DNA of 64,000 nucleotides from Pirellulales bacterium (lineage in GTDB: Bacteria; Planctomycetota; Planctomycetia; Pirellulales; DATAWG01), in NCBI GenBank assembly GCA_963725485.1, contig CAVRYO010000006.1, positions 2,573 through 66,572 of the forward strand. The letters are read 5' to 3'. The notes beneath the pieces were generated by a model that was given only the letters and a program-made list of their open reading frames with translations, did not search any database and was not told the origin of the DNA. The position numbers and the translations under genes are program-made. This document shows, piece after piece, positions 3,626 to 31,477 of this stretch (the stretch's first letter is position 1; every line of letters starts with the position of its first letter).

Positions 3626-3669
3626 CGATGGCAGCCTTTCCGTCGAACCCCAAACGTAGGAGTCGAACC

Positions 3670-7270: not shown

Positions 7271-8626
7271 TCATCGCATGTTCTCCTCGCGCGGCTTCAT
7301 CGGCAGCGGCGATTCTCCGGTCCGTGCCAGGATCGCCGGCTTGCCGGTGAATCTTTGGAAGCGGTCCGCTATTACGTCACAGTAGGGCGGATCGAGTTCC
7401 ATCAGAAACGCCTTGCGACCCGTCTGCTCGGCGGCGATCAACGTCGAGCCGCTTCCGCCGAACAGGTCCAGCACGTTCTCGCCTGGCCGCGACGAATACT
7501 GCATGGCCCGAACAGCAAGCTCAGCCGGTTTGGCCGTTAAATGTTCCATGCTTTGAGGGTTAATCTTCTTCACGTGCCAGAGATCGGTGGCGTTGTTCGG
7601 GCCGAGGTAGACGTGCGCCGCGCCTTCTCGCCAACCGTAGAAGCACCATCTCGAACGCGCCCATGAAGTCCTTGCGGGTCAGCACCGGATGCTGCTTGTC
7701 CCAGATGATGCCTTGGCTGAAGTACAACCCGTGCTTCTTCAGGACCGGCGGATAGTTGCCGCAGTTGGCATATCCGCCCCAGATGTAGAAGCCACGTCCT
7801 GGCGTCAGCACGCGGGCCATGTTCCCGAACCAAGCGTCGAGCAGACTGATCGAACGCTTCGTCGGTCACGAAGTCGTTGGCCAACGGCCGATCCTTGGCC
7901 CGCATTTTCTTGTGCGTCGCCTTCGCCTTCTCGGGATGCCGCTCCAGGTCGAACTTCTGGTGGTGCTTGTTCGGGTTGGCAAAGCTGCTGTTGCCCGCGG
8001 CGATGGCGTTGTTCGAGCGCGGCTCGACCTTCACGTTGTACGGCGGGTCGGTGTTGACCAGATGGATCGTCGCGCCGTCGAGCAGCCGGTCCACGTCTTC
8101 GGGCTTGCTGCTGTCGCCGCAGAGCAGGCGGTGGTCGCCAAGAATCCAGAGATCGCCGGGCTGCGTCGTCGCTTCGTCGGGCGGCGCCGGGCACGTCGTC
8201 CGGATCGCAGAGGCCTTCATTGCAGATCGCCGATTGAGCAGCTTGGCCAACTCGTCCTGGTCGAAACCCAAGCAGCGACAGGTCGAAGTTCGAGATTCTG
8301 CAGGTCGTGCAGTTCGATCGGCAGCAGGTCGAAGTCCCACTCGGCCAGCGTCGTTCGTCTGGTTGTCGGCGATCCGATAGGCCTTGATCTGGGCCGGCGT
8401 CAGATCTTTGGCGACGTGGACCGGCACCTTTTCCAGGCCCAGCTTCTGCGCCGCCTTCCAGCGCGTGTGGCCGACGATGATCACGCCGTCGGCATCGACG
8501 ACGATCGGCTGGCGGAAGCCGAATTCACGGATGGACGCGCGACGGCATCCACGGCGTCGTCGTTGACCCGCGGGTTGTTCGGGATAGGGCTTGATGTCGA
8601 GACGTTTTCCGCAGCTCGATCTTCAT
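7271..8626 (-). CDS. ParB/Srx-domain + DNA N4/N6 methyltransferase (frameshifted)
   Basis: N-term PNNPRVNDDAV...GHTRWKAAQKLG...ADN; HRLLCGDS, TDPPYNV, H.T.KP, VLDLFGGSGST, ELDPPYCD. Confidence 0.92.
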
Positions 8627-8719
8627 CGGAGCGCACCTTAAGCACAGGGTTATGTGCTGGTGGCTCCGAGCAGCGGAGTGCGGCCCCGGCAATCCAGGGC
8701 GGCGGGCAGGCGGACCAGA
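8627..8719 (-). promoter_or_regulatory. Conserved structured leader, copy 1 (directly before ParB-MTase ATG)
   Basis: Near-identical to 11335-11394 and 31046-31138; stems conserved, loops differ. Confidence 0.6.
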
Positions 8720-8796
8720 GAAACCGCTTGCCGCTTGTATCTATCGCCACCCATTCTACCAAAATGAGTGGCGTTCGTCACGTTCCGCCGGCGGCG

Positions 8797-9640
8797 GGTA
8801 GTGGGGTCTTATGAATTTTCTTTTCCCGAAGAAAGTTCGGCGGTCTGAAATCAAGAATCTTTCGGCCGACGAGTGAATGCGCGCCACGCCGCCCAACAAA
8901 TGCCCAACATCATGGCGGCACACCAGGTAGCATCCAATATCCACGCCGTGCGCTCGCATGTAGAGAGAGGATGGCGTAGCCGAACGCGATGACCATGAAA
9001 AGGCCGCCGTATATTTTCTGGTTGCCGCGTTCCATGCCCCCAACATACCCGAGCCGAAGTGGCGCAAAAAAGCAAGTCACCTGAAAGCGGGCCCCCCTCG
9101 ATCCGGCCTTCAAACGCATTCCATCGCCCGGTCGTACAGTTCTTCCAGCGTCCAAACGTCGCCTATCACGCCAGCGGCAACGGCCGGAGCGGTCTTTAGC
9201 GTGCCGTGGATGCGGCAGAAGTTGTAATGGGCCGCATGGATCGCAACCGCAGCCGCGAGGTTTTCCAGCTTCTTGCTGAATCCCAGCGTCAAGCGGGTGA
9301 ACCGACGCATGAACGTCCGAATGGTTAAGTTGGATCGCTCGACATGGCTGGTACATATCGTGCACTGCTCGCGGCTGTTTATACTGAATATGCCACGGCT
9401 TGCTGCCCACTATCTCGCTCGGAACATAGGTCGGCTGGCGTTGCGGAATTCAATCACAATGCTGCCGTACTTCACGTTCGGCCCGAACGCGAGGTCAACC
9501 GCTTCGGGATAGCATTGAAAGCCATCGGTTGAAATCTGGACGACTGGCTCATTGCGGAAGATGTTTCCGGTAACAACGCGGCCGCGTAGATCGACCATGA
9601 ATCGCCGGGTTAGGATTCGGCGATCCGTCATAGGTAGCGT
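8797..9640 (-). mobile_element. IS1-family transposase remnant (3' part, 9110-9640) with IR-like end and small passenger ORF
   Basis: QISTDG..Y, ICTSHVERSNLTIR, RRFTRLTLGFSKKLEN, YNFCRIH, PAVAAG; GGTAGTGGGGTC at 8797 resembles the IR at 20771. Confidence 0.75.
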
Positions 9641-9699
9641 TCCTGTTGCCGCTAGAGACTCGCGGCCCACTTGAATTCGGCCGTCGCCTGCGGGATAGA

Positions 9700-10004
9700 C
9701 GGTCCAGAAACGTCGCGTACAGATCGTCGCGCGACTGAGGGCGTGTCGCATCTTCAGTGGTTAACCTGACGTCCGGATTGCCTCTCAATCGGTATTCGCC
9801 CCGATTGACGCGATCGATGCCATGCCCCTCGGTCGTTGTGAGGACGAGCAGTCCAGGCTCGACACGCGCGCGATCCCGATCGTGGACGCCGGTGAAATGA
9901 GTCCAAATCTCGATCGTGTGCGCCTCGCCATCTTGGGTGTAGGCTGTGAAGCTTCCGATGCACTCCAAATGCGATCGATCGGGACTGTTGTCCGGCTGCC
10001 GCAC
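9700..10004 (-). CDS. Hypothetical protein
   Basis: Protein-like ORF segment FTAYTQDGEAHTIEIW...LTTTEGHGIDRVNRGEY; 3' end uncertain. Confidence 0.45.
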
Positions 10005-10280
10005 TCTTGAGAATTTTCGCTCATTCGCGCATTGTAGCAGTCGGCATCATCGAGTCTGTTGGAATACTTCGAGAAGCCCGCCCATCGCACTTCTCACGTC
10101 AAGGGAACGCTAGCAGTTTGCCCGAGTATCAGCTAACGTGTGTTGTCAATGAATCGCGCAAGATCTTGGTTCTGTTTTCTGGGGTGATCAACAGCGGTGT
10201 GCAGCCTGAATTGCCACAATTGGGCGCCCAGGGGACCATCTGAACTGTCCGCGCCACTGATAACCACAGGCGGAATCGAA

Positions 10281-10978
10281 TTAGGCTTTCCTGCGGCGAC
10301 CGACGAAAAATATCCCCATCGCAACGAGGCCGCCGAGGGCGGCAAGTGACGAGGGCTCGGGGACAGCTGTAAAGGTGATGGCGGAAATCACGGCATTCAC
10401 ACCCCCGTTGTAGTCGATATCGATCGTGAGTGGTCCAACCGGGGCGTCCACGGTCCAGGACACCCATTCGCCATTGTGGTACGCATTCGACGGAGCGCTC
10501 CTGCGCCACTGTTGTTCACTTCCATTGGATCCCCGTCGATGGAGAGCGTGATGTCGCGCCCGTTGCTATCCCAGTCAAGCGCGTAAACGCTGAGCTTGAA
10601 CGCGTGGGCCTGACTGACATTTAGTGTGGCCGAGTAATTGCTACCATCAAACGAGGTGGCGGCAACTCTCGAACCGGAAGGATCGAGCGGGTTCTGCGGA
10701 GCGCGCGGATCGTTCGTACTGGTTGCCCATTGATATTGCTGCGTTCCCGCACTGTACGAGTAGCCTGAAATGTAGCTCGGCAAAGAAACAAGGTCATTGC
10801 TGGGGCTCGCCGTCGCGATGTACTGGCTCGACGTGCCAAGGTAGTCATTCAAAATATAGCCATCATTTCCGTAAACGCCGATCCAGTTTCCTTGTGTCGT
10901 CGTGTCGATTGTTGCAGATCGCAGCGTGACCGTCGAAACGCACAAGATCGCCACCCCGAAAAGTGCTCGCTGGAACAT
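10281..10978 (-). CDS. PEP-CTERM sorting domain protein (frameshifted)
   Basis: Signal peptide, S/T/N/G-rich body, C-terminal VPEPSSLAALGGLVAMGIFFVGRRRKA. Confidence 0.85.
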
Positions 10979-11334
10979 GTTTGGCCCTCACCAAGAAGAT
11001 GCGAAAGTTCCGATGGGTCGAATGACCGTGTGACTCGTGCCTTCGATTGTAATCTACTCGCCCCCGACTTCGCCACGATCGGCTGCGGGTTTCCTTTGCT
11101 TTTCAACTGCCCACAGGCCCATTGCGCAAGCGGCAGCACGATTTGGCGTCGTTTTCTCGGAATGAACGCAACTGGCGGCTTAGTCGAAGCTGCACGTGCT
11201 ACTGCTCGAATAGCTTGGCAAGACCCGTGCCCGCCAACCTCGAACGGGCCGTGATGGACGGCGCTGGTGTCCGGGCGGTGTTTCGAGGGCGCACACGGGC
11301 CGAACCTGACGGATCCTGCGAAGGCCGGCTGTAT

Positions 11335-11394
11335 CGGAGCGCACCTTAAGCACAGGGTTGTTGTGCTGGCGGCTCCGAGCAACGGAGTGCGGCC
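11335..11394 (-). promoter_or_regulatory. Conserved structured leader, copy 2 (ATG replaced by ATA, no ParB gene follows)
   Basis: Direct repeat of 8627-8686 with loop and wobble changes. Confidence 0.6.
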
Positions 11395-11484
11395 TCGGCT
11401 ACCGGAGCGGATTCGGAGTTCCGACCGGGCCAGAGCAATCTGGCAAAAGATGGGATAGTGTCAAGAATTCCAAATGCGTTCCAC

Positions 11485-11736
11485 TCAGTCGCTAGGCGGG
11501 CTATCGATACTCGAAATGTCATTTCGAAATCGCGCTCCGGGGTGGCGCGGTGATGGCGATTCTGCTTCGGCGACCCTTTCGCCCGACGAGGCGCACGCCC
11601 ACTTGACGCCGCCGACGTCAACAACCCACGATTCGCCCTCGTGATACCAGTGGATCAATTCGCTACAAGCGGTATCACGGGCAGGCCCGACCGTGATCGG
11701 CCCACAGGAATCAGCACCGTTTTCGATATTTTGCAT
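11485..11736 (-). CDS. CsrA-like small protein (frameshifted)
   Basis: WYHEGESWVVDVGGV.. (shift) VRLVGRKGRRSRIAITAP; paralog of 16426-16641 and 29042-29284. Confidence 0.6.
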   Translation of the reverse strand: MQNIENGADSCGPITVGPARDTACSELIHWYHEGESWVVDVGGVKWACASSGERVAEAESPSPRHPGARFRNDISSIDSPPSD

Positions 11737-11859
11737 TGTCAGCCTCCTGCTGGTGTGGTGCGGTGGCTGCTCTCACCGGCTTGCACTTCGAAACTTGCCG
11801 ATGGCTCGTTCTTCATTGAGATGAGCCTTGGCCGAAAGTATCCATCTGACACATCTCGG

Positions 11860-12090
11860 CTCTGGACCGAGGCTTTAAAGGTCGCCTCGGATGGCGCCTC
11901 GATTGCGATTCGGCCACGCCGACCTTTTCGACGGATGTACCGAACGGTCACCCACAGCCCGTCGGAATTGACGACGATGGGCTGGCGAAGTCCGAACGCG
12001 GGTCGATACGACGACCGCCTCCACGGCGTCGTCATTGGGACGTGGGTTGTTCGGGAACATCGGACGTTTTCCAAAGCTCGATCTTCAAGT
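11860..12090 (-). pseudogene. Chimeric remnant: ParB N-terminus joined to CsrA-like C-terminus
   Basis: LKIELWKTSD..PNNPRPNDDAVEAVV..FGLRQPIVVNSDG runs into LWVTVRYIRRKGRRGRIAIEAP. Confidence 0.7.
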
Positions 12091-12102
12091 GGCATCCCTT
12101 CC

Positions 12103-12948
12103 TTAATCGCGGCGGTTTACGAATGGTCTCTTGCCCCATTTCTGCGAATATCGTTTTATCTGGTCCTGCTCGAACTGATTTGCAGTCGGCCGTTCACCCG
12201 GCTGAAAGACTCGCCAAGAAACATAGGTGTTCCGAAATAGCTGAAGGCTGGCCCAATCGGGTACAAACTCCGTTCGGTAGGTCCAAGCGCCGCTGTGGCC
12301 CAGCAGCCCGTGCGCCGTTTGCTGAAATTCAATTAGTCGCTGATTGAGCGATCGTCGGTTTTTGTCGTGTCCGATATAGCCGATGTAAATAACCGCTCGA
12401 CTCATCAGGTCGACTACAGGCTCGGGCAAGCCGCTAAAATGAGCGAATACGTAGACGCCGCCTTGTGAAGGGACAGGAGATCGCTTGCGGAAGAGTCGCC
12501 ACGGAACAAAACCAGACGATTGTGGCTCGGTGCCGGGCACGTAGGATGGCTCGGTTTCGTCGAGGCTGGGCAGAGGCAATGCTGCGCACCGAGCCGCCCC
12601 TACGGCGATGAGATCGAGAATTGGGTCGATCTCCAGCGACCAGTTCTGCGCGTTCCAGGCGGTCTTGCCGTTGGGATATTTCTGTCGCAGGATGCGCCCG
12701 ACCACAAATCCAGCCTCCTGCCATCTCGAATTCGCTAAGCCACAGTCCTGATACTGCAGGACGCAGCCGAATGGACCTTGGCTCGGTGTGCCAATCAGGT
12801 CGTCCCGGAAGAAGTTTCCATAGCCGCGACCGAGAAACTCGACGACCACCTTCCGCGCTGAAATTCGATCTGTGAACACGGAATAGCTCAATCGATGACC
12901 TTGGGATGAACTCAACCCGTTCACATTTTCGTTTGTTCGGACAAGCAA
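12103..12948 (-). CDS. Protein with C-terminal GIY-YIG-like nuclease domain
   Basis: GGVYVF...VIYIG...RSLNQRL...FE...KRPFVN motif spacing. Confidence 0.6.
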   Translation of the reverse strand: MLVRTNENVNGLSSSQGHRLSYSVFTDRISARKVVVEFLGRGYGNFFRDDLIGTPSQGPFGCVLQYQDCGLANSRWQEAGFVVGRILRQKYPNGKTAWNAQNWSLEIDPILDLIAVGAARCAALPLPSLDETEPSYVPGTEPQSSGFVPWRLFRKRSPVPSQGGVYVFAHFSGLPEPVVDLMSRAVIYIGYIGHDKNRRSLNQRLIEFQQTAHGLLGHSGAWTYRTEFVPDWASLQLFRNTYVSWRVFQPGERPTANQFEQDQIKRYSQKWGKRPFVNRRD

Positions 12949-13379
12949 TACAAATCGTGCTCAAAATAGGGCCAGTTCCCGCGGGCCGCATGCCGCTTCG
13001 TGCGGTAGACCTACCTCCTCGGCTGACCCGTCGCTGCCACCGTGGCATACGCGCCGCGTTGGCCCACGTCGCGGCCGGCTAACAGCCTGTTGAAGTATTC
13101 GGTTTTGCCAGCATTGCAAGCGTGGTTGTTGCCGAGGGAAACCGTGATTGGCCTCCCTTCTTTGGTAATACTTCAACGGGCTGCTAACCCATCTATTCGT
13201 GGGTTGCGGACGAACGCGCCTCTTGGCCTCGTGGGCGACGACGGTCGAGAAATTTACGCAGTGTCCCATCCCAGTCGAGCCTGGGTGCCGGTCCTACGCG
13301 CACTGTGGGATCGAAGTCAGCATGGCTCACACCCAGCGACCGATATGGCCGCCGTTCGGAATCTCATGTTTTGGATTCC

Positions 13380-16269
13380 TCAACGAGGCTTATGGATAAC
13401 CTTTCGAGCAGACAAGCTTGCCTCCCGCTTCAATTTGTCTCGCTGCACAAGCTTCTCGAACTCCGTGAGGTAGCCGTCGGGATACGTGTCGATCACCATT
13501 GGTGGCCGCCGAGCGGATTTTCTCTGAACGTAGGCGTCAAAGTCCTGGCAACGGGACGTCAGAAATCTCCAGAAGTTGATGCCCTTGTAGTAGCATGTGT
13601 GGCAAACGCTCAGCAGGACCAAATACTTCGCCAGGCCGGCCTCGTTCATCATGTTCGGCACGCGGGCGCGGTAAAGCGCGAAGCGGTGAATCGCGTTCTC
13701 GGCATTATTGTTGTTCCAAGGCACTCCATCGTAATTCACAAACGTGAACAGCCTGTCCTGGTATTTGAGCAACCTGGACCGCAACGCTTGAGCCGGATCG
13801 GACCGCGGCGCCAAAGATTCAACCGCGCGAAAGTAATCCGCAATCCGCGGCCGGAACGTTCGCAATCGAGAGCGCTTGAGTCCGTGCTGATCAATGCATT
13901 CGACGATTAGCCTGAGGAGCACGCCGAAGGGCTCGGTCAGGCGCGCAACTCCGAATCAAACGGGTTCGCCAGCAGATCGTCGTTCATATCCCGCATGAGA
14001 TGGACCAAGCATTTCTGTTGAGGGCAATCAATCGCGTCATAGACCGCATAGAAGTCGGACACAAGAACGCCGTGGAACGACCTCAGCATCTCCTTCAGAA
14101 AGTCTCCCTCTCGGTTCGGCCGATACAGATAAACCACTTCCTCCAGATTGCTGAGAGCCCAGACGTAACCTCTCTTGCCCCTCAACTTCACCAGCGTTTC
14201 ATCTACGTGTAGGAGAGGCCCGGAGAGCAGCTTTTCCAAGAGCCGCTGCCGGGTAGGCTCATAAAACTGAGCCATCAGCGTCTTGAAGTGATTGATGTAC
14301 GACCTTTCAATCGGCACGTCAAAAATGGCTTCAATCATATCACCGACCGCGCCAAAGCTGAGGCCGTGAGCGACATGTTGGTAGATGGCCCACCCTTGCA
14401 GCCCATGTGCGTACCTTGCCAAACGCGAATGTGCATGCGGTACGAAGACTGCCTTGCATTTCTTGCATTGGTAGTTGGCACTGTAACTTTCGATCACACT
14501 GAGCTTGACCCCGTGGGCTGTCGGGGTCAGGTCGAACGCCCGTTTGATCCGTGGTCGACGGCGCGAAATCGGATGCTTTTCGAGCGCGATCAACTTGCCG
14601 CTGCCGCAGACTTCACATTTGGTGGCAACCGTCGCAACGCGCCGGGTAACCCGCAACTGCAGATTCCGCTGTCGCAGGGAGACTGATTTCCGTCGGCTTG
14701 TTTTGATCATCCGAGCGAAAACACGTTGCCGTTGGTAATTGAAGTAGGCACAGCCGTTCACGTAAGCGAACTCCTTGTGGACAAAGTTGATCGCTCCCCA
14801 CTTCCTGCGACGGGCGAGCTGATCCAGTTCCTCAACGCGCGTCAGCGGCAGTCGTTCCTCAGTGACAACCCCCGGTTGAATGTCCGCGCCGGCGACGATG
14901 CCGCGGACGCTATCGGTCACAAGCCGCGAGGGCTCGAAGATCGTCGAGGTTGTACCGCAGGAGCATATTCCTCCATGATTCGTCGCGGGACTCGGCCCAG
15001 TGCTCCCGCCACACGATGCTTTGCAATCCCGAGGAATTCGTTGCTTGCCAGACATATCCTAGGCAACCCGCCACGTCCTTGAGTCCGTTGGACCAGGTGG
15101 GGAAGTAAATGTGCGGATAGATCACAGCCAGCACGTTGACCGTTGACGCCAGAGCGCGGTCAATCTGATCTGTTCTTGACGAACTGTTGCGCATACGGCG
15201 TAGGAACCTGCCCTCGAAATTGCCGTACGTGAACAGAGTGAAGTCCTTGTTATCGGGAAGTCTTGCCAGAAACTGCTCGAAGATGTTTTGTTCCTGGTCT
15301 TTTGCATCGGCCCAAAAGGAGTGCTGCTGCTCAAATCCATCCTGGCAAACCAGCATGCCAATGAGGTAGACAAAGGACTCTTCCGGATTGGACTCTACAT
15401 CGAGGTAAATCTGCACGGGGCTGCTATTAAGCTTAGGAGTGCCGAGAACATAGATTGTCCGATCCCGAATCGCCTTGGCTTGCAACGCGAATTGGCGCTT
15501 GGGGCTTTGAGGCTCGCCCCGTTTCCCCTTGCGGCGCGGGCGGAACGTGTGGGACAACTGGGTGACGGTAAAGATCCCCTTTCGAGCGTAACGCTTGATC
15601 TCCTTCTGCCCGATTCCACGCAGCAGACTGAGGTGGTCGGATTTGACGGCCTGCGCTTGGCAACGCTGCTGGAATTCACAAACTTTGCAGTGTGGGTTCA
15701 GGGCAAGACGTGGCTCAACTTCGTCGGTGAGTGCTTGCTGCAGGGAGGCGACCAGTCGATCGGCATCGGCAAAATGACGATCCAACCGAACTTTACGGAC
15801 CTGTGCGTCCCAACAATGCACGATCAAGCCGAACTCTGGGCTTCCCCTGAAGCTCAGAGAGAGCAAGGCCATAGAGCGCCAGTAAGAGCTTCTGCTCCCT
15901 ACGAATCTGGTGGCTGTCGTGGATGAGCAACGGCACGTAGTGGAACCTGCCGAGCTTCGACGTCCCATCCGTCCGTTGCAGACCGTCGAAGTGTAACGAA
16001 AAGCGGTCGTCATCAAGGACCGCGTCGAGAATGAATCGAGAACCGCGTTTGAGCGTGGCCAACGTGAGCAACACGTCGCGCTCAACGCTGTTTGCCGGCT
16101 GGATCGCGAGGAGTTTCTCGATTAATCGCAGTCGGGCCTTCGCGCGCCGGGCTAAGAGCATTTTCTCAAATTCGGACGCGGCGCCCGTTTCGCCTAATGC
16201 CTTCAAATGACCCTTGAGGTTGCAATTAAGGAAGCCTTCAAGGATGACGCTCGTGATCTTGGTTGGCAT
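13380..16269 (-). CDS. TM0106/Cas4-RecB-like nuclease + HhH + RNase_H_2 + zinc finger + IS66-type DDE transposase fusion (~960 aa, three frameshifts)
   Basis: FLNC..K, HCKVCEFQQRC, LRGIG, YLDVE..YLIG, LKDVA, YNLDD; CEVCG/CKKC; HVDET, VSDFYAVY, QKCLVHLMRD, NNNAE. Confidence 0.8.
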
Positions 16270-16425
16270 AACAACCCCATGAGAAGAATCGACGATAGTG
16301 ATGAAGAGTGGCTCCCAATTAATGCTAATTCGATGCGAACCGGAATCGAGTACCGGCACAGAAGCGACTACTGGTGGGACGCATGCAAGCGGTGCCGAGT
16401 AGCTGGGCACTGTGCAGGACCGCAG

Positions 16426-16641
16426 TTAGCCAGAGCAAAACGTGGCGCCAGCAGGCGCGGCGATGAGGATGCGGCCGCGCCGCCCCTTGCGCCCAACGAA
16501 CCGGACCGTGACCCGAACGCCGCCGACATCAACGATCCGTGACTCCCCCTCGGCGTACCAGTCAATCGAATGGCAGCACAGCGGGCAGGCTAGCGGCTCG
16601 GCCATCGACTTGAGCTCGGGCTGGCGACTCGCGTCGTCCAT
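16426..16641 (-). CDS. CsrA-like small protein
   Basis: GGAGG RBS; DWYAEGESRIVDVGGVRVTVRFVGRKGRRGRILIAAPAGATF. Confidence 0.65.
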   Translation of the reverse strand: MDDASRQPELKSMAEPLACPLCCHSIDWYAEGESRIVDVGGVRVTVRFVGRKGRRGRILIAAPAGATFCSG

Positions 16642-16642
16642 C

Positions 16643-16852
16643 TCAGGCCTCCATCCCGCTGGCCTTGGTAGCGGCCTGCTCACACATCGCAACCCGTTTA
16701 TTGAACGTGCGCCTCGACTTCCCGGTCAGGCGCGTCCATTCGGAAGCCTGCTCGCGGCGGGTTGACAATCGCCCCCGGAGGTCCAAGACGAGCTGGGTTT
16801 CTCGCTCGTAAACCGTTTGTAGACCAGCCAGTTGCGGATTTGCCCCGTCCAT
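16643..16852 (-). CDS. Hypothetical phage protein / C-terminal HTH-like fragment
   Basis: WTRLTGKSRRTF resembles an HTH recognition helix; sits at the island edge. Confidence 0.4.
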   Translation of the reverse strand: MDGANPQLAGLQTVYERETQLVLDLRGRLSTRREQASEWTRLTGKSRRTFNKRVAMCEQAATKASGMEA

Positions 16853-16898
16853 GTCGGCCCGCGTGAAGATTAGGGACGCGTTTGTACCCAGCAGTGGT

Positions 16899-17337
16899 GC
16901 TGGGACTCGGCGTGATCGTCGTCGAGGCGTCCACCCGCTCCGGCGCGCTGATCACGGCCCGGCACGCGATGGAGCAGGGGCGCGAAGTGTTCGCCGTGCC
17001 GGGCCGCGTCGATAGTCGCAATTCGCACGGCTGCCATCGGCTGATTCGCGACGGAGCGAAGCTGGTCGAGACGGTCGACGACGTTCTGGAAGAATTCGGG
17101 CCGCTGCCGAATCCAGCCCCGGATCAGCAGGGCGAGATCGTCCATCATCCGGCCGAGCTGCTGCTGAACGAAATGGAACGGCAAGTGCTCGCCGCAATCG
17201 ACACGCAGCCGACCGCTATCGATCAAGTGATCGCAGCCAGCAAGCTGCCGGTGGCCCAAGTGCTTTCAATCCTCAGCGTCCTGGAAATGCGCCGTCTGAT
17301 CCGCCGCGTCAGCGGCACGTTGGTCGCGCGGCCTTGA
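16899..17337 (+). pseudogene. dprA: DNA-processing protein DprA, 3' part only
   Basis: [28 protein letters not shown]...[13 protein letters not shown] and C-terminal winged helix ([10 protein letters not shown]); N-terminal two-thirds absent. Confidence 0.85.
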
Positions 17338-17468
17338 CGGTCTGTCGAACCACCGATTCGCCTCATCCGTGTCGTCAGCGTCATCCGTGGCCGAATTCAC
17401 AAAGAATTGCACCACGGATTACGCGAAGACCACGGATGACACCGTCGTAGCCCGCCTGTCAATGCTCG

Positions 17469-20588: not shown

Positions 20589-20791
20589 GAGACTTCCTGG
20601 AGTGCGAAGCGGCTAGCCGCGATATTTGCCGATGGATCGATGCTTGGTGGGAATCGCCGAGGCGATGGCATCGATCGCGGGCGGCTGGTTCCGAGGAAAC
20701 GTTCGGCCGCCCGGGCGTAAGCGCTCCATCATAAGTAAAACCGGCGAAGAATCAATTTTCCGAGCGACGGGGTAGTGGGCCAGTTTGATTT

Positions 20792-21640: not shown

Positions 21641-21646
21641 GTCCAT

Positions 21647-21732
21647 ATTATGCGTGAGCGGTCACGGATTGTCAAGGGCTATGTAAAGAAGTAGTTTACT
21701 TCTTGACATGATAACTATTCTCGTGGTACAAG
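21647..21732. promoter_or_regulatory. Back-to-back sigma70-like promoters with palindromic operator
   Basis: Minus: TTGACA-17-CATAAT; plus: TTGACA-18-TACAAG; each -10 lies 6 nt before an ATG; IR AAGAAGTA-gtt-TACTTCTT at 21686-21704. Confidence 0.65.
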
Positions 21733-21738
21733 AACAGA

Positions 21739-22281: not shown

Positions 22282-22399
22282 AGCCCGACGATCAGCGAGA
22301 GGTTCCGTAAGATGGGGCTTGCATAACCATGTCCATTATCGACTCGTAACCCGGCATCAATGCACAGGCCAAATTCCGCTGTGCGCCGCGGAAAACCTG

Positions 22400-22670
22400 G
22401 ATAGAATAGCGGTCTTTTTCGGTCCCGTGCTGATTGGTGCGGCCGCGGGCGGTGTTGTCGGTGGTTTACGCGGGCGACCGAAAGCCGGTATAGGTTGGGG
22501 GATATTCGGCGGCATTGCCGGCGGCTTCATTGGTTTAGTCTTGAACCATTCTTTGGTGAGTGGACCGAATATCTACCCTGGCGGCGCCCTTCTTTGTCGG
22601 CGGTATTCTCATCGGATCGGTCCTTTGTGCGGCGGTTTTCGTGAGGCGGCTGGCTCCGAAAAATCCCTGA
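22400..22670 (+). CDS. Small Gly-rich membrane protein (IS passenger); boundaries uncertain
   Basis: FFGPVLIGAAAGGVVGG...WGIFGGIAGGFIGLV glycine-zipper helices. Confidence 0.4.
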
Positions 22671-22702
22671 TTTCAAACTGGCCCACTACCAGCGACGGCC
22701 GA

Positions 22703-23841
22703 TTAGCTCACGTGCTGCGCCAGAATCTGTGCGACAGCCATGCTTTCTTGGAAGACCGGGTCGAACTCCCGGTCGCAGAATTGACGGCTGGCGAGCTCGG
22801 CGATGCCCTCGGTTTTTGTGGTGAGCGTGCGGGGCGCGGCATCCTGACCTTCGGCAACGACCGAAAGTCGCTGGCCATTGTCGTCGTTGAAGACCAGCGC
22901 GCCACGAACGTCATTTATTGTGCAGGCGATTCGCATCCGCTGGACCACGGGCCGTCCGGAGGCCAGACGTTGAATTCGCAGCTTCAGCCGGCCGTGCGGA
23001 GCAACCACGGGCCAATTGATTTCGACGTTGTCGTGCACGTGGCCATCCTGAACTTGCCAACTCAGCTTGGATGCCAGCCAGCTCGCGAGTTGCCAGGCTT
23101 GGACGACGGCATGCGGACCATGCTCAACCGCCACCTCGGTGATCGACTCGATCGCGCCGGGCGCGGAGGCCGGCGCCAGTGATTGCCCGAGCATTCGTCG
23201 CCAATATTTCAAACGCCGCCAATTCAGATCAGAGACGACGCGCCGCCGTCCCAGCGTCCTTCTCGCTCGAATTTCGAAAGCCACGCGCCGGTCGCCGCCA
23301 CGGCTTTCGCGGGTTCGATCCAGCCGATGCTGTCGTACACGATTTGCTCGGCGTGTTCCGATAAATCGAACAAGAATGCTCCGCCATACGCCGGCGGCCG
23401 GCTGGCAGCCCACCAGAGATTCGTCGGCAAGTCGCCCAGCAGCAAGCCGCGAACGCAAAACGGCAAGCGATCGAGTCCCGCGCCGCGGCTCTTGAGAATC
23501 ACCTCTTCCGTGCAAATTCGCTGCTGTCCGCTGCCGACGCGGCACCAGGCCCGAACCCAAGCATCGACGCCGTCGACCCCCGGTTCCTTGTTGTCGAGAT
23601 CACCGATGAGAAACAACACCCGGGCCGGATGCACTGCGACAATCGCGGGAATCTCGGTCGCAATTTGCTCGGCCCGCGCGTCGGAGTCGCAAAACACAAC
23701 CAGGTTCGACATTCGAGCCAGATGTACCGCGTGTTCCGGCAATGCATCGCCCGGCATCAGTTGGCGCTGCAGCTCGTGCTCGACTTCGCGAATCGCCACC
23801 GGAACCGCTTCGCCGATAAACGACAGGGTGGCCGTGCTCAT
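22703..23841 (-). CDS. opcA: Glucose-6-phosphate dehydrogenase assembly protein OpcA (frameshifted)
   Basis: SNLVV, HPARV, ICTEEV, LLLGDLPTNLWW, DLNWRRL..WR; TGATG-coupled to zwf. Confidence 0.88.
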
Positions 23842-25443
23842 CAGAGAGTTCTCCACTGCCGGCCATCGGCTTCGATCAGCTTGTCAGCTTCCATCGGCCC
23901 CCAAGTGCCAGCCCGATATTCCGGCAAAGCTCGCACCCGGCTGGCTTGCCACGCTTCGATAATCGGCATCGCGAATTGCCAGGCGGTCTCGACCGCGTCG
24001 CGGCGCATGAACAGCGTGGCATCGCCCGCCATCACATCAAGGATCAATCGCTCGTAGGCTTCGGGCGTGGTGCCGCCAAAGCTCGAGCTGTAATTGAATT
24101 CCATCTTCACCGGATAAATGCGGGCTTTAGGACCCGGCAACTTCGAAACGATTCGCAGCGATAGCCCTTCTTCCGGTTGCACACGCAAAGACAAGACCGT
24201 CGGCTCCAACGGCACGTCGGGGTTGACGTTGAACAACACCTGCGGCACGGCGCGGAATTGAATCGCTACTTCGCTCGCCCGCTTCGGCATGTGCTTGCCG
24301 GTGCGAATGTAGAACGGCACGCCGGCCCAGCGCCAATTGTCGACAAACAGCCGCAGGGCGACGAAAGTTTCGGTCGTCGAATCGGCCGGGATCGGCTTCC
24401 GCAGCGCGCCGAAATAATCGTTGACTTCCTTGCGATAGCCGGGCACCCATTGCCCGCGCGATTCGCCCTGAATGTATTGCGCGAACCACGTTTCGATCGA
24501 CGTCGGCCTGTGCAATCGGGCGGAGACACCGCAACACCCCGATTTTGGCGTCGCGCTGCACGTTGGGGTCTAGCGACCACGGCGGTTCCATCGCGGCGAG
24601 ACAGAGCACCTGCAGGATGTGGTTCTGCACCATGTCGCGCAGCGCACCGACTCCTTCGTAATAACCGATCCGGCTCCCGAGCGCTTTGCCGTCGGCGTCG
24701 TACTGCGTCAGGCCTTCTTCTTCCGCGACGGTGATCTGCACGTGGTCGATGCAGTTGTTGTTCCAAATCGGCTCGAAGATGCTGTTGGCAAACCGCAGCA
24801 CCAACAGGTTCTGCACGGTTTCTTTGCCCAGATAGTGATCGATCCGGTAGGTTTGGCTTTCGTCGAAACCGGCGCCAACGGATTGGATCACCTGCCGAGC
24901 GCTTTCGAGGTCGTGACCAATCGGTTTCTCGACGATCACCCGCGTGAAGGAGTGGGACTCTTCGGGATCGGAAACCATTCCCGCGGCTTTGAGATGCTGG
25001 ATGCAGATCGGCACGAGATCGGGTGGAATCGAGAGATAGTAGACTCGCGCCGCGGGAATTCCGAATTGCTGATCGATCGATTCCAGCGCGGCCTTGAGTT
25101 GCTCGTAAGCCCGGGACTCGTTGAAGCTGCCGGGCACGAAAAACAGAGATCGCGAAAAATCGGCCCAGTGCGCTTCGTCGAGCGGTTGGCGGGAAAACTT
25201 GGTAATCCCGTCGCGAGCCCGAGCCCGAATGTACTCATTCGGATCGCCGCCGTCGTTGCTGTTGGTCAGGCCGAAGCCGACGGTGGCGAAATTCGCCGGA
25301 ATGAGACCATCGACGTTCAAGTTGTAAATGGCGGGCATTAATTTCCGCCACGAGAGATCGCCGCCCGCGCCGAAGATGACGAGCGTACACGGTTGCGGAT
25401 GCAACATCGAACTCGCGCTGTGCGCGAAGGGATTTTCTTGCAT
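23841..25443 (-). CDS. zwf: Glucose-6-phosphate 1-dehydrogenase (frameshifted)
   Basis: IFGAGGDL, EKPIG, RIDHYLGKE, RDMVQNH, RWAGVPFYIRTGK, AYERL. Confidence 0.95.
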
Positions 25444-25490
25444 GATCGATCCTGATTTCCCGTCGATTCCTCCCCCAACTTAGACGCTCG

Positions 25491-28041
25491 TCACTCCACG
25501 GGGCAAGGGCTCGCGTCCCAGACGTCGGCCGCATACTGGGCAATCGTGCGGTCGCTGGAGAATTTGCCCGAGGAACCGACGTTGACGATCACCTTGCGCG
25601 TCCAGGCGTCGGGATCGCGGTAAAGCTCGCCGAGCCGGAATTGAGCTGCGGTGTATGAAGTCAAATCGGCGAGATGCATGTAGTGGTCGCCGTTGGTGAC
25701 GAGGGTGTCCCAAATAGCCCGGAAAATGCCCGGCTCGCCGGGACTGAGACTCGTTGGAGGCGATCATGTCGAGCGCCCGCCGAGTTTCCGGCTCATGCTC
25801 GTAATGCCAGCGCGGGTCGTACCAGCCGCGCAATTCGTTGACTTGCTCGGCAGTGAGACCGAAGAAGAAGAAATTTTCTTCGCCGGCTTCTTCGGCCATC
25901 TCGATCGTGGCTCCGTCGCGCGTGGCGATGGTCAACGCGCCGTTCATCATAAACTTCATGTTGCTCGTGCCGCTCGCTTCATAGCCGGCCGTGGAAATCT
26001 GCTCCGACACATCCGCCGCGCGGACCAGGCGCTCGGCGAGGCTGACATTGTAATCCGGCAGATAGACGACTTTCAGCCGGCCTTTCATCGCTGGATCGGC
26101 AGCGATCACGGCGCCGACATTGTGGATCAACTTGATGATCAACTTGGCCAGAGTGTAAGCCGGGGCCGCCTTTCCGCCGAATAGGTATGTTCGCGGTGGG
26201 AGTTCGGCGTGCGGGTTCGACCGCAACTGGTTGTAGTGCACGATGATTTGCAACACGTTCAACAACTGCCGCTTGTATTCGTGAATCCGCTTGATCTGGC
26301 AATCGAAAATCGACGCCGGATCGACCGTTTGCCCATGAATGGTTCGCAGCCAATGAGCGAATTGCACTTTGGCGTCATGCTTGGCCTTGCGGACTGCCTC
26401 GCGAAATGAAGCGTCGTCGGCCAGGGGGATGATATTCCGCAGTTGGTCGAGATCAGTGATCCAACCGTCGCCGATCGCTTCGGTGATAATCTTGGCCAAG
26501 CCGGGATTCGCGTTCAGCAGCCAACGCCGCGGCGTAACGCCGTTCGTCTTGTTGTTGAACCGCTCGGAAAACATCTCGGCGAAATCCGGCACGACCGTCG
26601 ATTTCAGCAATTCCGTGTGAATCGCCGCGACGCCATTGGTGCTGTGCGTGCCGACGATCGCCAGATTAGCCATCCGCACCTTCCGCACCGGCCCCTCTTC
26701 GATCAGGCTCATCCGGCCGAGGCGCTGTGGTTCGTTCGGATAGCGCTGGCGCACATCGTCGAGCAAGCGGCGATTGATTTCATAGATGATTTCCAAGTGC
26801 CGCGGGAGCAACTGCTCGAATAGCTCGACCGGCCACCGCTCCAAGGCCTCGGGCAAAAGCGTGTGGTTGGTGTAGGCCAACGTGCGCGTGCAGAGATCCC
26901 ATGCCACATCCCAGGAGAGATACGCCTGTTCGAGCAGAATCCGCATCAACTCGGCCACGGCCAACGAGGGATGCGTGTCGTTGAGTTGGATGGCCACCTT
27001 ATCCGGCAGCGTGTGCCAATCCGGATTGCCGCTCTTGCGGAATCGCGACACGATGTCGTTCAGCGAACAGCAGACCAAGAAATATTCTTGGAGGAACCGG
27101 AGCGTGCGGCCTTCTTGCGTGGAGTCGTCGGGATACAGAACGCGCGTGAGCGAAGCGGCGCCGATATTTTCCAACACCGCGCCCACGACGTCCCCCGACG
27201 AAAAACCCGCGAAGTCGAAATTTTCGGGCGAGGTCGCCGACCACAGCCGCAACGTGTTGACGCACTTGCCGCCGTAGCCCACGATCGGCCGGTCATAGGC
27301 GATGCCTTGCAGGTGGCTCGGCTTGCCCGAGAGGAAACTAAGGCGACCTCCTTGGAGATGAATGGTTGCGCCCAGCGGCACTTTCTGGACCTTGCCCGGC
27401 CGGGCGACTTCCCAAGGATCGGGCCTGCGGAGCCAGTTGTCAGGCTGCTCGACCTGATAGCCGTTGCGGATTGTTTGCTTGAAAATTCCATATTCATAGC
27501 GCAGTCCGTAGCCCACGGCGGCATATTCCATCGACGCCAACGAATCGAGGAAGCAAGCGGCAAGTCGACCGAGGCCGCCGTTGCCCAATCCGGCGTCGGG
27601 CTCAAGCTCCGCCAGCTGATGAACGTCTAATTCCTCGCGCTCCAGCGCTTGCTGCACAAGCGGCTCGACCATCAGATTGACGATGTTGTTGGTCAACGTG
27701 CGGCCGATCAAAAATTCCATCGAGAGATAATAGATTCGCTTGGGGTTCTCACGCTCGCGAACCTGCCGCGTCTTCACCCAGCGATGCGCCAACAGGTCGC
27801 GGATAAACCGCGCGACCGCCTCGAACCGCTGCCGCGGCCGGGCCAACTCCGGCGACACCAGCTGCTCGCACAACAGATATCGAGAGCCCCAATCGCTGTG
27901 GCCATCCGCGAAGCCCAAGCGGCCGAGTCGTCGCTCGAGGGCAGAGCCATCGCCTGGATTGGTCGCCTGATTTGGGGCTTGGTTGGCGGCCTGGTCGGCC
28001 GACGGATTGGCTTTCGAAGTCGGGGGAATCGTGGCGCTCAT
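25491..28041 (-). CDS. glgP: Glycogen/starch/alpha-glucan phosphorylase (frameshift near 3' end)
   Basis: GLGNGGLGRL, QLNDTHP, YTNHT, KRIHEYKRQ, EASGTSNMK, FSSDRTI. Confidence 0.95.
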
Positions 28042-28471
28042 GGCGGCGCATCCTTATCGATGAAGGCGGGTGTGGAGAGCGGCAAATGAAGCCTGGGTCG
28101 TGAATTCGCCAACCACGAGGCACGATTCGCAATTCGCGATCAAATTGTTAGGCCAAGGCTGCTAGCTGGCCCGGAAAAATCAGCGTAATCCTTACGAGTG
28201 GGCGCACTGCGCGGAAATCATTAGCTTTTAGTGAGGGTGCGCGGAATACCGTCAATACCGCACTTTCAAAAACCCGTCGCTGTGGCCCGCCGAGGGAATC
28301 GAGACCGCGCAATGTACCGCCTCGACCGGATGCCTACTAGGGTCGACGCAGGGTGGATCAGCGGGCGGAACTTCAAGACCGCGCGCTGTGAATGGAGAAC
28401 AAGTAAAAAATCACGAGGCTTCTGAAAATTATTGCCGCCACTGCGCACCCGTGCGCGGCAGGGAGCATTTG

Positions 28472-28526
28472 CCAAATACGCCCCTCAGGAATCGATACCT
28501 GCGCAACCTGCGGATTAGAAGACTCC
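28472..28526 (-). repeat. Degenerate copy of tRNA-Arg 3' half (att site)
   Basis: CCAAATACGCCCCTCAGGAATCGATACCTGCGCAACCTGCGGATTAGAAG matches 32318-32364 with a few indels and substitutions. Confidence 0.85.
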
Positions 28527-28589
28527 GGGCACGACGCCGCAACCAATATACCCGTTTCGGAGTTGCGGCAACACGCGATCGGCGAGGTG

Positions 28590-28742
28590 CCCGCCGAGGT
28601 GCCGAGTCCGTCTGGGGCGACCTCTAGCCCCGACCTTCCGCCCGATCTGGCCCGCGTCGTCGATGCGTGGCCGCGTCTACCCGACGCCATCAAGGCCGGC
28701 GTTCTGGCGATGGTCCAAGCCACGGGAGACGCCCGTGCCTAA
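28590..28742 (+). CDS. Small att-adjacent protein (start uncertain)
   Basis: ...PDLPPDLARVVDAWPRLPDAIKAGVLAMVQATGDARA*; a motif I associate with planctomycete island ends. Confidence 0.5.
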   Translation, partial: PAEVPSPSGATSSPDLPPDLARVVDAWPRLPDAIKAGVLAMVQATGDARA

Positions 28743-29041
28743 CGCGTCTTTCAACGTCGTCGCCCACGTTCGCCGGTGCCGCGTTCCTGCACGGCACGCG
28801 GACGAACGGGCCAACGGCCGCAACCGTCGCGACGTGGGCCAACGTCGGGCGTTCGTTCACGCGAAAGGAAGGGCCGGCCGGCCTTAGGTACTTCCGGGCG
28901 ATCCCGGCGGCGGGCGGCCCGCGGGAACAGGCCCCATTAACAGCACAGTTTGTTTTGATTGTCCGAATTCTTTAGAGGATCAAATCCACTGATGTTTTGA
29001 AGCCGTTTTTGACGCAAACCACTTGAAGCGAGTACGTTGGA

Positions 29042-29284
29042 ATGAACATGATTTCTCGTCAGGATAGCGAATCGAATCGAGATAATTGCACGCGAAGAGT
29101 TCCAAACGAAACGAGCCGGGCAATCGCGTGGTATCACGAGGGAGAATCATGGAGAGTCGAGGTGGACGGCGTCGAGATATCCATTCGACTGGTCGCCCGG
29201 AAGGGTCGTAGGGCTCGGATCGCAATTGAAGCGCCGGCGGGTGCGATTTTCCGCTCACTTGGAGTCAATGGAGAGGGGTTCTAG
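29042..29284 (+). CDS. CsrA-like small protein
   Basis: AWYHEGESWRVEVDGVEISIRLVARKGRRARIAIEAPAGAIF. Confidence 0.65.
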   Translation: MNMISRQDSESNRDNCTRRVPNETSRAIAWYHEGESWRVEVDGVEISIRLVARKGRRARIAIEAPAGAIFRSLGVNGEGF

Positions 29285-29491
29285 CAGCGAATGGGGTTGC
29301 TGATGAACGGGGGCCTGCGATGGGATGCCGAGTCGGTTGGGCGAACTGTCGCGCCCACTCCCCCCATGTTTTGAACGACCAGCGCTAGTGTTTTTCAGGC
29401 CCGGGACATTGTTTCCCTTAGACCGTTCAGACACAATAACGCCGGCTAGCGGAAACCCGCCGCGCATCAATCGCAAAGGAATCGGTGTCGT

Positions 29492-30941
29492 ATGTCTATC
29501 TTCCGAAGAGCGTTCGCCGTCGTATTAGCCGTGGTTGTCGGAATGACTTTTTCGCCAGCGATCAGCGACGGGGCGGAGTTGGGCGAGAAAGAAGCACTGG
29601 AGCTGGCCACGGACGCATACATCTATGGCTACCCGCTTGTCACAATGGAATACACTCGGCGAGTGATGACGAACGTGGCCGAGCCCAAGGACAACCACGC
29701 TCCGATGGGCCAGTTCTATCTTTCCCGTACTTATCCCACCGCAGAATTTCGCGACGTGACGGCCCCTAACGCCGACACCTTGTATTCGTTTGCTTGGCTA
29801 GATTTGACCAAGGATGCCTATGTCCTGAGTCTGCCCGATCAGGATGATCGCTATTACCTCATGCCGATGCTCGATGCATGGACAAATGTGTTCGAGGTGC
29901 CTGGCACGCGCACAACCGGCACGAAGGCACAGGTCTACGCCATTACCGGTCCGGGCTGGAAGGGAGAACTTCCTAAGGGCGTCAAGGAAGTCAAGTCACC
30001 GACGAGCATGGTGTGGATTTTGGGCCGCACCTACTGCACGGGAACGAAGGAAGATTACAAGAAAGTCCATGAGCTACAGGCCGAATACAAAATCGTGCCG
30101 CTCAGTGCCTACGGCAAGGAATACACGCCACCGAAGGGCGAAGTAGATGACAAAATTGACATGAAGACGCCGGTCCGCAGCCAAGTCAACGCCCTCAAAG
30201 GGAGTGAATTCTTTGCGTTATTGGCAAAACTGATGAAAGACAATCCGCCGGTTGCGGCTGATGCGCCAATGGTCGAGAAGTTAAAAAAACTTGGTATCGT
30301 GCCGGGTAGTGACTTCGATCTCGGCGCGATTCCACCGGTTGTAAAAACGGCGCTGGAATCTGCGTCTGTACCCGGCCTGAAAGCAATCGAGGCGCACTTG
30401 AAGAAAGCCGGTAAGTACGTGAATGGCTGGGCCTATCCTTCCCCCGCCGGCGTTTACGGCACGGAATACCTTCAACGAGCGACCGTCACATTTTTCGGAT
30501 TGGGCTGCAACCGGACGAAAGACGCGGTTTACCCGACTTCCGAAGAGAATGCCGATGGCAAACCTTACGATGGAGCGAACAAATACACGCTAACTTTCGC
30601 CAAGGGAGAGTTACCGCCGGTCAACGGCTTTTGGTCGCTAAGGATCGGGGATTAAATAACGTCACAAGATTTCGCCCAAGTGGCCGAAACGGATGAAGAG
30701 CTATTTTTTCGTCGAGAACAAACTCGATCGCTACACGCTTAGCGAGCGGAACAAACTCACGAAAAACGAAGATGGCTCGGTGACGTTATATTTGCAGAAC
30801 GCCTCGCCTGGACCTGAAAAGGAGTCGAATTGGCTTCCTGCGCCAAAGGGCAAATTCGTCCTCATGATGCGGCTGTATTGGCCCAAAGAAAAAGCCCCAT
30901 CGATTATTGACGGCACCTGGGAGCCGCCGGCAGTCAAGTAG
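29492..30941 (+). CDS. DUF1254/DUF1214 exported protein (interrupted near 30640-30690)
   Basis: Signal peptide; AYIYGYPLV, PNADTLYS, WILGRT, PPVNGFWSL, SNWLPAP, MRLYWP. Confidence 0.88.
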
Positions 30942-31045
30942 TCGTCCTGTTCAGTGAATCCGATTTGAGATTCGTCGAATTGTAATCGTTTCTGCGAACA
31001 TTCGCGGAGATGAACTTGCTTTCGTTGAATTAGTGACAGGCCATA

Positions 31046-31138
31046 TCTGGTCCGCCTGTCCGCCGCCTTGGATCGCCGGGGCCGCACTCCGCTTCTCGGA
31101 GTCACCAGCACATACCACTGTGCTCAAGGTGCGCTCCG
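31046..31138 (+). promoter_or_regulatory. Conserved structured leader, copy 3 (directly before ParB ATG)
   Basis: Homologous to 8627-8719. Confidence 0.6.
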
Positions 31139-31477
31139 ATGAAGATTGAACTCTGGAAGCTCTCGCGGGTCAAGCCGTACCCGAACAATCCCCGCGTTAA
31201 CGATGACGCTGTGGACGCGGTCGTCGCGTCGATCCGCGAGTTCGGATTCCGTCAGCCGATCGTCGTCGATTCCGACGGCGTGATCATCGTCGGCCACACG
31301 CGCTGGAAGGCGGCGCAGAAGCTGGGCCTGGAAAAGGTGCCGGTCCACGTCGCCAAAGAACTGTCGCCGGAGCAGATCAAGGCGTACCGCATCGCCGACA
31401 ACAAGACGAACGAGTTGGCAGAATGGAATTACGAGTTGCTCCCCATCGAACTGGCTGACCTCCAGGTAGCGAACTAA
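31139..31477 (+). CDS. ParB/Srx N-terminal domain (truncated paralog of ParB-MTase)
   Basis: MKIELWKLSRVKPYPNNPRVNDDAV...GHTRWKAAQKLG...ADNKTNE, stops before the methylase domain. Confidence 0.85.
   Translation: MKIELWKLSRVKPYPNNPRVNDDAVDAVVASIREFGFRQPIVVDSDGVIIVGHTRWKAAQKLGLEKVPVHVAKELSPEQIKAYRIADNKTNELAEWNYELLPIELADLQVAN

Follow-up and report, generated by a model that had tools for sequence, protein, structure and literature searches.

A probable hypervariable gene slot between a CsrA-like gene and a candidate leader RNA in remnants of temperate Planctomycetota phages

The 'morons' of phages and the mosaic junctions between their modules were reportedly described by Hendrix and colleagues; a moron is defined by its own promoter and terminator. 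In the com-mom system of phage Mu, the product of the small regulator gene, the zinc-finger protein Com, controls the DNA-modification gene mom. To our knowledge, descriptions of Planctomycetota phages are very few. P2-like phages and P4-like satellites have hotspots in which prophages encode immune systems (Rousset et al., bioRxiv 10.1101/2021.01.21.427644), and a second preprint describes hyper-variability hotspots of phage genomes and plasmids that arise via insertions and non-homologous recombination (bioRxiv 10.1101/2024.10.15.618418). Alleles of csrA occur on phages and plasmids, with 30 of 2,517 phage genomes carrying one (PMC7366521). Here we analyze a 64,000-nucleotide (nt) stretch of DNA from a Pirellulales bacterium of the Planctomycetota (contig CAVRYO010000006.1 of GenBank assembly GCA_963725485.1, positions 2,573 to 66,572), referred to in its entirety as the window, in which a small gene, a short leader sequence and the start of a ParB gene recur around unrelated cargo genes. 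It is probable, in our assessment, that the window contains remnants of temperate Planctomycetota phages with a hypervariable slot bounded by two anchors; the slot lies between an early module (integrase, HTH_17, primase or polymerase) and a late operon (ParB-methylase, HNH, terminase). The left anchor is the 3' end of a gene for a protein of predicted CsrA-like fold and the right anchor is a promoter followed by a structured 5' leader, and both are short islands with 80-97% nucleotide identity among otherwise diverged phages.

A first-pass annotation of the window, made from its letters alone, had proposed that the junction of the csrA-like and parB genes is a gene-capture hotspot in a family of planctomycete phages. 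The parts it named are present where it placed them, as four copies or fragments of the small open reading frame (ORF), three copies of the leader and three ParB starts. The comparative search that it had suggested supports the hotspot: cargo varies widely between loci, units occur in tandem, and the loci have sharply defined borders in common. A protein scan of one genome per species yielded 19 loci, all of them in Planctomycetota metagenome-assembled genomes (MAGs), and the leader motif picked up 43 contigs from metagenomes and 3 from IMG/VR. In the 35 loci that have both markers, each HMM match to the small gene precedes the leader and shares its strand. Among the protein-anchored loci, the leader follows downstream on the same strand in 17 of 19; the exceptions, L006 and L016, belong to one MAG and have 4 and 3 copies of the small gene. 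Nine leader-anchored loci extend 4 kb or more upstream of the leader, and 8 of these 9 have the small gene there on the same strand, the exception being L057. In the 35 loci, the spacer between the small-gene end and the leader start is 58 nt at its shortest (L007), then 205 and 429 nt, and reaches 7,996 nt.

The content of this interval differs from locus to locus. All-against-all tblastx sorted 38 spacers into 29 unrelated groups, and two multi-member groups consist of duplicate records. The sole recurring cargo is an HTH-M78 protease with a partner of 182 amino acids (aa), present in L010, L015, L018 and L045. Our own codon log-odds gene caller, which served only to pick ORFs for family scans, misses low-GC cargo, and the spacers were therefore rescanned with all ORFs of at least 80 aa. 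Restriction and modification are represented by a type IIG restriction-methylase, an Mrr-type nuclease and a C5 methylase set with HD-CE, ORC/CDC6-like and CARF-like proteins. HipA-like proteins and PD-T4-6-like kinases make up the toxin and kinase cargo, and a dCTP-deaminase-like protein and Nmad3 the nucleotide-related cargo. Further spacers hold IS3, proteins with ankyrin, leucine-rich or tetratricopeptide repeats, several family-less ORFs, and genes of planctomycete chromosome type (PSD1, DUF1501). Searched against PHROGs, most of the cargo had no family.

The borders of the slot are sharp on both sides. The small genes are 80-89% alike at the nucleotide level over their core, and in the best 45 pairs of loci with different cargo this similarity stops between -67 and +37 nt from the small-gene stop codon, often within 0-8 nt. 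On the right, 1,073 of 1,356 pairwise leader alignments begin between -5 and +20 nt from the 5' end of the leader (644 start within 5 nt of it and 429 start 6-20 nt inside), and 23 reach more than 100 nt upstream. Three prophages from one MAG differ in cargo: one has none, one has a type IIG enzyme and one has a 1,541-aa protein. Their late modules are about 90% identical, the likeness setting in about 180-245 nt before the leader, and the small genes of two of the three pairs can be aligned and are 74-75% alike over the aligned parts. The three are a case of classic module mosaicism, with cargo at the junction.

The elements that carry the slot are temperate phages. Matches to Pfam, PHROG and Rfam give a locus order that starts with a tRNA gene and a tyrosine integrase that includes an Arm-binding domain, followed by HTH_17 and either a PrimPol/D5 primase or a family A polymerase (PolA). 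The small gene, the variable stretch, the leader and a ParB-N6/N4 methylase (phrog_498) come next, and after these, in many cases, DUF1937 and, on the opposite strand, a HARE-HTH gene, then HNH and terminase. The ParB-methylase of L001 matches phrog_498 with an E-value (E) of 5.7e-123 and has ParB_N and N6_N4_Mtase in one protein. The integrases of the relatives are of the phage type and stand 4-8 kb upstream, beyond the replication genes and beside tRNA genes. Two ParB-methylases, at 14754-16925 of L005 (723 aa) and 12791-14662 of L010 (623 aa), have an insert inside the methylase domain; L005 has an Intein_splicing match under the Pfam cut-off (27.9 vs 35.8 bits).

Several observations weigh against a general slot of this kind. 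No leader or ParB lies within reach of the small genes in L006 and L016, and no small gene was found within 9 kb of the L057 leader. Sporadic in occurrence, the family was detected in 2 of 401 sampled Planctomycetota genomes, the window's own included; as scoring covered only 14 first-look candidates in each genome, this figure is a minimum. PADLOC matched 11 of the 27 cargo sets tested and 14 of 47 proteins, among them a type IIG restriction-modification enzyme, a C5 methylase with a CARF-like protein, HipA-like proteins, Mrr-type enzymes and PD-T4-6-like kinases. Several matches are at the level of domains or of a generic type (kinase, methylase, ankyrin), so that only some of the cargo is likely to act in defence. 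The window could also be viewed as decayed prophage fragments of unrelated origin, together with insertion sequences, in a pile-up due to chance and with no hotspot at all. Its region at 2.5-17.3 kb is indeed composite, with two different large-terminase fragments, IS66 and a truncated dprA at its edge; genes are split over frames, and the ParB of a second region (island C, 28.47-32.40 kb) is truncated. Such a pile-up would have to recur with the same order and strand of markers, variable content and sharp shared borders in 35 loci from many genomes and metagenomes, which makes it very unlikely, and we continue to regard the slot as the better description of these loci.

The right anchor was characterized from its alignment. 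The leader is about 90-115 nt long and ends at the ParB start codon; its conservation sets in about where the transcript would start and stops at the ATG. It is 85-97% identical across loci, compared with 42-91% for the flanking proteins, and in 44 of 55 distinct copies a TA[TCG]AAT box lies 5-24 nt upstream, even amid unrelated surroundings. In its four helices (P1-P4), 93.9% of cells pair, against 33-48% with slid partners. Changes on both sides occur in 12 pairs, among them all 9 pairs of P1, and none of 500 shuffles reached the observed values. Frequent G-U pairs are confined to the coding strand. Given the -10 box, the helices, the G-U pairs on the coding strand and the end at the ATG, the leader reads as a structured 5' untranslated region (UTR) with covarying helices and a sigma-70-type promoter upstream, and not as a DNA recombination site. 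In Rfam 15, the three leader copies of the window had no match at E<=1 and those of seven loci had none at gathering score. Of the 17 protein-anchored loci, 15 have the triplet GGA in the P2 loop, and every one has it in the P3 arm.

Parts of this leader model deserve a more cautious reading. P4 was added by hand; RNAalifold on the raw alignment did not draw it, and its support consists of conservation and a few changes. Most leader loci were found with a pattern that lies inside P3-P4, so the conservation of these two helices in the metagenome set is partly by construction; P3 and the portion of P4 that the pattern covers vary just as little among the protein-anchored loci. A CUCCG before the ATG can take part in two mutually exclusive pairings, with the 3' arm of P3 or with the 5' end of the leader, and about 92% of cells are complementary. 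These alternatives gave no significant covariation, and we mention them as ideas only.

The leader's hairpins and the repetition of units raise the possibility of a dedicated cassette system, in which the leader would be an attC- or att-like site and a site-specific recombinase would insert units serially. The first-pass annotation had likened the tandem units to an integron-free cassette array, and tandem units do recur: more than one unit is present in 7 of 36 loci (the window, L005, L006, L011, L016, L017 and L030). Partial leaders moreover flank cargo in unit B of the window (67 nt, 92.5%) and in L005. These partial leaders preserve different parts, the 3' part in the window (leader B1) and the 5' part in L005. 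The leader stands on one side of the cargo only, and the left border is a stop codon without a repeat; no recombinase is common to the cargo sets; and the element has the attributes of a transcribed leader, with a -10 box upstream, an ATG at its end and G-U pairs confined to the coding strand. A cassette system thus seems highly improbable. The resemblance to a cassette array is one of appearance only, because the joints are irregular and neither a recombinase nor an attC-like site comes along; nothing integron-like was found.

The joints themselves differ from one another. In the window, read base by base, a stretch of about 45 ParB codons runs directly into the second half of the small gene at a shared GACGG(C)GT microhomology, within coding sequence, a further point at odds with site-specific insertion. 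In L005, the 5' half of the leader is followed about 50 nt on by a C-terminal fragment of the CsrA-like gene, and in L021 the leader and about 40 ParB codons precede, by 3 kb, a full ParB without a leader. At the joints examined, no recombinase and no repeated site accompanied the units. We read the joints as probable illegitimate or short-homology joins between related genomes. In three prophages of one MAG (L002 10627-15700, L004 14584-19600 and L012 15273-18800), RGP/TAGT-type glycosyltransferases take the place of the methylase after the leader and about 50 ParB codons, which suggests a different DNA-modification module under the same leader.

The left anchor belongs to a protein family that annotation resources do not name. 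A word-index protein search gave 5 relatives only, and we instead used a profile search over 1.84 billion representatives, which retrieved 268 clusters at E<=0.001, of which 214 reach E<=1e-10; the small protein therefore represents a real, unannotated family. In the window, the alignment of copies A, B and C has 20 invariant columns, and the fourth fragment (11856-11978, minus strand) was recovered with the family hidden Markov model (HMM). The 'CsrA-like' label of the first-pass annotation fared unevenly: Pfam gave no match, and the backing comes from remote evidence in a PDB profile comparison and a predicted fold. A family profile of 107 sequences had six matches in the PDB, all six of them CsrA (E 0.14-0.59), and the alignment covers the stretch 'V.VTV..VG.KG...RI.I.AP'. 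The AlphaFold2 (AF2) model of copy C has three long strands and a predicted local distance difference test score (pLDDT) of 83.8. Searched with Foldseek, its top chains are CsrA, RsmA and RsmE (probability 0.89-0.97, template-modelling (TM) score on the target 0.62-0.77, E 0.3-1), and CsrA/Rsm chains hold ranks 1-4, 6, 7, 9, 10, 12 and 15. A two-copy model is an intertwined homodimer with strands pairing between the copies (score 0.58, against 0.00 for the best control), contacts that agree by at least 93% between runs and pLDDT of at least 77. In calibration, the mark was reached by 20 of 30 solved homodimers and by 1 of 23 single chains. The nearest ESM Atlas clusters are mostly viral, and one (score 0.86) has CsrA on 21% of its members, which we treat as a lead only.

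Against this assignment stand the Pfam search of the three window ORFs, without a CsrA match at E<=0.01, the failure of PHROGs and PADLOC to recognize the small protein, and E-values from the PDB profile and Foldseek that are individually non-significant; the dimer score, in turn, may reflect the model's memory of solved CsrA dimers. With these points in mind, 'CsrA-like fold' is a reasonable label for what the models predict.

Taken together, the two anchors suggest how the slot might be filled. Its tolerance of insertions would follow from its position between two transcription units. Cargo would be exchanged via homologous recombination at the two anchors, and a second unit would be added when an illegitimate join connects the leader or ParB 5' end of one genome to the CsrA-like gene of another, the crossover linking a point immediately right of the slot in the first genome with a point immediately left of it in the second. 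Because such a join would duplicate no essential gene, recombinants of this kind could survive and tandem units could accumulate. It speaks against this scheme that it is read from end products, no recombination event having been observed. More speculatively, a CsrA-like dimer may act on the leader; it would bind the GGA in the P2 loop and the GGA in P3 and thereby time the translation of the DNA-modification and packaging operon. This suggestion is drawn from the constant genomic linkage of the two only. A further proposal, which we consider doubtful, is that the anchors form a functional pair, in which the dimer would bind the leader and turn on translation of the DNA-modification and packaging operon. 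This constraint would hold both sequences almost invariant at the nucleotide level and so make them recombination handles, by which the phages could exchange and stack accessory and defence genes as units, with cassette exchange needing no dedicated recombinase.

The features of the window are collected in Table 1. Within the 6.3-Mb genome, every copy of the small gene and of the ParB-methylase is confined to this window, and one extra 34-nt leader fragment lies elsewhere on the same contig.

Table 1. Features of the two phage remnants in the window (positions in the 64,000-nt stretch).
Feature	Position	Strand	Evidence and remarks
CsrA-like small ORF, copy A	16426..16692	-	family HMM E 8.2e-29, alignment; apparently whole; start 16641 also possible
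Cargo A	12103..16410	-	205-aa ORF, RNase_H_2 protein, IS66 transposase in two pieces, family-less ORFs
Fusion ORF	11739..12095	-	about 45 leaderless ParB codons and C-terminal half of CsrA-like gene (11856-11978)
CsrA-like ORF, copy B	11485..11736	-	two frames, break near 11603; HMM matches 11602-11685 and 11531-11605
Partial leader B1	11333..11399	-	3' side of P2 up to ParB ATG position, then a different gene
Cargo B	8736..11332	-	PEP-CTERM protein in pieces and family-less ORFs
Full leader B2	8626..8735	-	TAGAAT box upstream, helices P1-P4, ends at ParB ATG
ParB-N6/N4 DNA methylase	7271..8625	-	three frames, breaks near 7846 and 7646; both domains present
HNH endonuclease, small terminase, large terminase	4291..6823	-	large terminase of phrog_9 type, two pieces, truncated
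Distal copy of tRNA-Arg 3' end, att-like repeat	28472..28521	+	left end of island C
CsrA-like ORF, copy C	29042..29284	+	HMM E 3.8e-29; AF2 model
Cargo C: DUF1254/DUF1214 protein in two frames	29492..30941	+	Pfam
Leader C	31030..31138	+	self-comparison and alignment
ParB N-terminal domain, 112 aa	31139..31477	+	ParB_N E 1.3e-11; methylase part missing
Doc toxin	31533..31913	-	Fic/DOC E 3e-19; phrog_577
Small ORF upstream of Doc, putative antitoxin	31920..32153	-	no family match
tRNA-Arg(tct)	32322..32396	-	right end of island C

Self-comparison connects the units. The leader and ParB start of unit B match those of island C (8298-8719 vs 31465-31046, 85.8% over 423 nt), and the two leaders of unit B match each other (8625-8690 vs 11333-11399, 92.5% over 67 nt); in the alignment, leader B1 departs from the full copies exactly at the ParB ATG position. 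As the first-pass annotation had observed, the ParB start near 12090 has no leader: it is 75% identical between 11959-12087 and 8486-8625, and the leader is lacking in the alignment. A fragment of cargo A (12936-13073) resembles the ORF upstream of copy C (71.5% to 28967-28828). Family matches support the earlier cargo labels of IS66 transposase, DUF1254/DUF1214 and PEP-CTERM motif (10281-10463 on the minus strand, E 7.8e-5). The Cas4/RecB label is upheld as far as the RNase_H_2 protein goes, its Cas4 match being weak (PADLOC 2e-6), and the 'GIY-YIG' and 'IS1 remnant' labels had no Pfam support at E<=0.05. The toxin-antitoxin module of phd/doc type has its Doc toxin, and its antitoxin ORF matches no family. 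Island C is flanked by a 50-nt direct repeat (28472-28521 vs 32318-32364, 88%) that overlaps tRNA-Arg, and contains the small gene, cargo, leader, 112 ParB residues and the Doc module only. The 2.5-17.3 kb region has no integrase or replication module. The window copies are composite remnants and not a working array.

Whether these tandem copies might be an artefact of assembly was considered with independent reads. Six soil DNA runs, and no RNA run among those listed, share 6-18% of sampled words with the window, and four of them were assembled around it. Their contigs were 150-360 nt long at low depth and no read or contig spans the window array, and the window's own assembly consists of 12 contigs rated 78% complete. 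Related contigs from the four runs have one base fewer at both breaks of the ParB-methylase (near 7646 and 7846), which may be real frameshifts or assembly indels; the coincidence of breaks with single-base differences would fit indel errors. The copies are, however, only 72-93% alike, too different for assembler confusion, short contigs from other soil runs cross single joints near-perfectly (for example 8582-8947 and 12084-12234), and tandem units occur in the independent assemblies L005, L011, L017 and L030. An artefact is thus an extremely remote explanation for the tandem copies.

Other features of the window were noted in passing. The C-terminal piece of another large terminase, one of a different type (phrog_979, gpA type), is encoded at 2526-3074 on the minus strand next to the phrog_9-type terminase (5791-4291), and two phage remnants abut at this place. 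At the upstream edge of the element, 16894-17337 on the plus strand encodes only the C-terminal part of DprA (the end of DNA_processg_A and a winged helix). A type II hammerhead ribozyme (RF02276, gathering score 37) is found at 3575-3640 on the plus strand of the window (43.9 bits) and at 15386-15450 on the minus strand of L008 (53 bits), in both cases directly upstream of the HARE-HTH gene on the strand opposite the ParB-methylase; at gathering score, it was not found in L001, L007, L009, L010, L013 and L018. Repeats elsewhere in the window pair 35922-36069 with 61548-61693 (89%, direct), 47141-47268 with 49104-49231 (73%) and 46266-46337 with 48099-48170 (83%). The glucose-6-phosphate dehydrogenase ORF at 24127-25443 on the minus strand matches only positions 1-101 of 296 of its C-terminal domain model and may have another frame break.

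The markers have practical uses. Together, the small-protein HMM and the leader motif retrieve prophages and their accessory genes from genomes and metagenomes. Since many family-less genes sit here where other prophages keep defence systems, the slot offers a ready list of candidate genes for defence or lysogenic conversion in Planctomycetota. With its good covariation, the leader is a candidate for a new cis-regulatory RNA, and in combination with the small protein it provides a case in which post-transcriptional control of a late operon in a phage can be tested.

Each known system matches the locus in part. Like CsrA/RsmA (PF02599), the protein of the left anchor is small, its predicted strands superpose, it is predicted to form an intertwined homodimer, and its GxxG-like and 'RI.I.AP' pattern aligns to CsrA strands; unlike CsrA/RsmA, it has no Pfam match, a variable N-terminal extension of 25-35 residues, and a conserved W-Y-x-E-G-E motif that is missing from CsrA. 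The arrangement resembles com-mom, where a phage DNA-modification gene is likewise preceded by a structured leader with a small regulator gene upstream of it, and by this analogy translational control by the opening of a hairpin is plausible. The small protein is CsrA-like whereas Com is a zinc-finger protein, and the link between protein and leader is here a genomic one only. With integron arrays the locus shares a series of unrelated genes, each beside a hairpin-forming repeat, but the slot lacks an integron integrase, an attI and an attC for each cassette, and its orientation and borders do not fit. No IntI-type integrase with attI lies beside the arrays, those of the window are without any tyrosine integrase, and an attC-like site is not present at every cassette border, the hairpin being at the right border only.

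The closer parallels are with the accessory regions of temperate phages. As with morons and mosaic junctions, extra genes stand between two transcription units of a temperate phage, and the junctions are at gene borders. The hyper-variability hotspots share the general class, that of diversity hotspots in phage genomes. The prophage hotspots of P2-like phages and P4-like satellites agree with the slot in their fixed prophage position between conserved genes, in the great diversity of the accessory genes, and in having restriction, toxin-antitoxin or other defence-type genes among their contents. The slot differs from those hotspots in its planctomycete phage family, in anchors that are a CsrA-like gene and an RNA leader and not P2 or P4 genes, in the frequent tandem duplication of the anchors, and in that much of the planctomycete cargo has no defence-type match. 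The slot is therefore a member of the known class of prophage accessory and defence hotspots; its novelty lies in the phages, in the family of the small protein and in the leader RNA.

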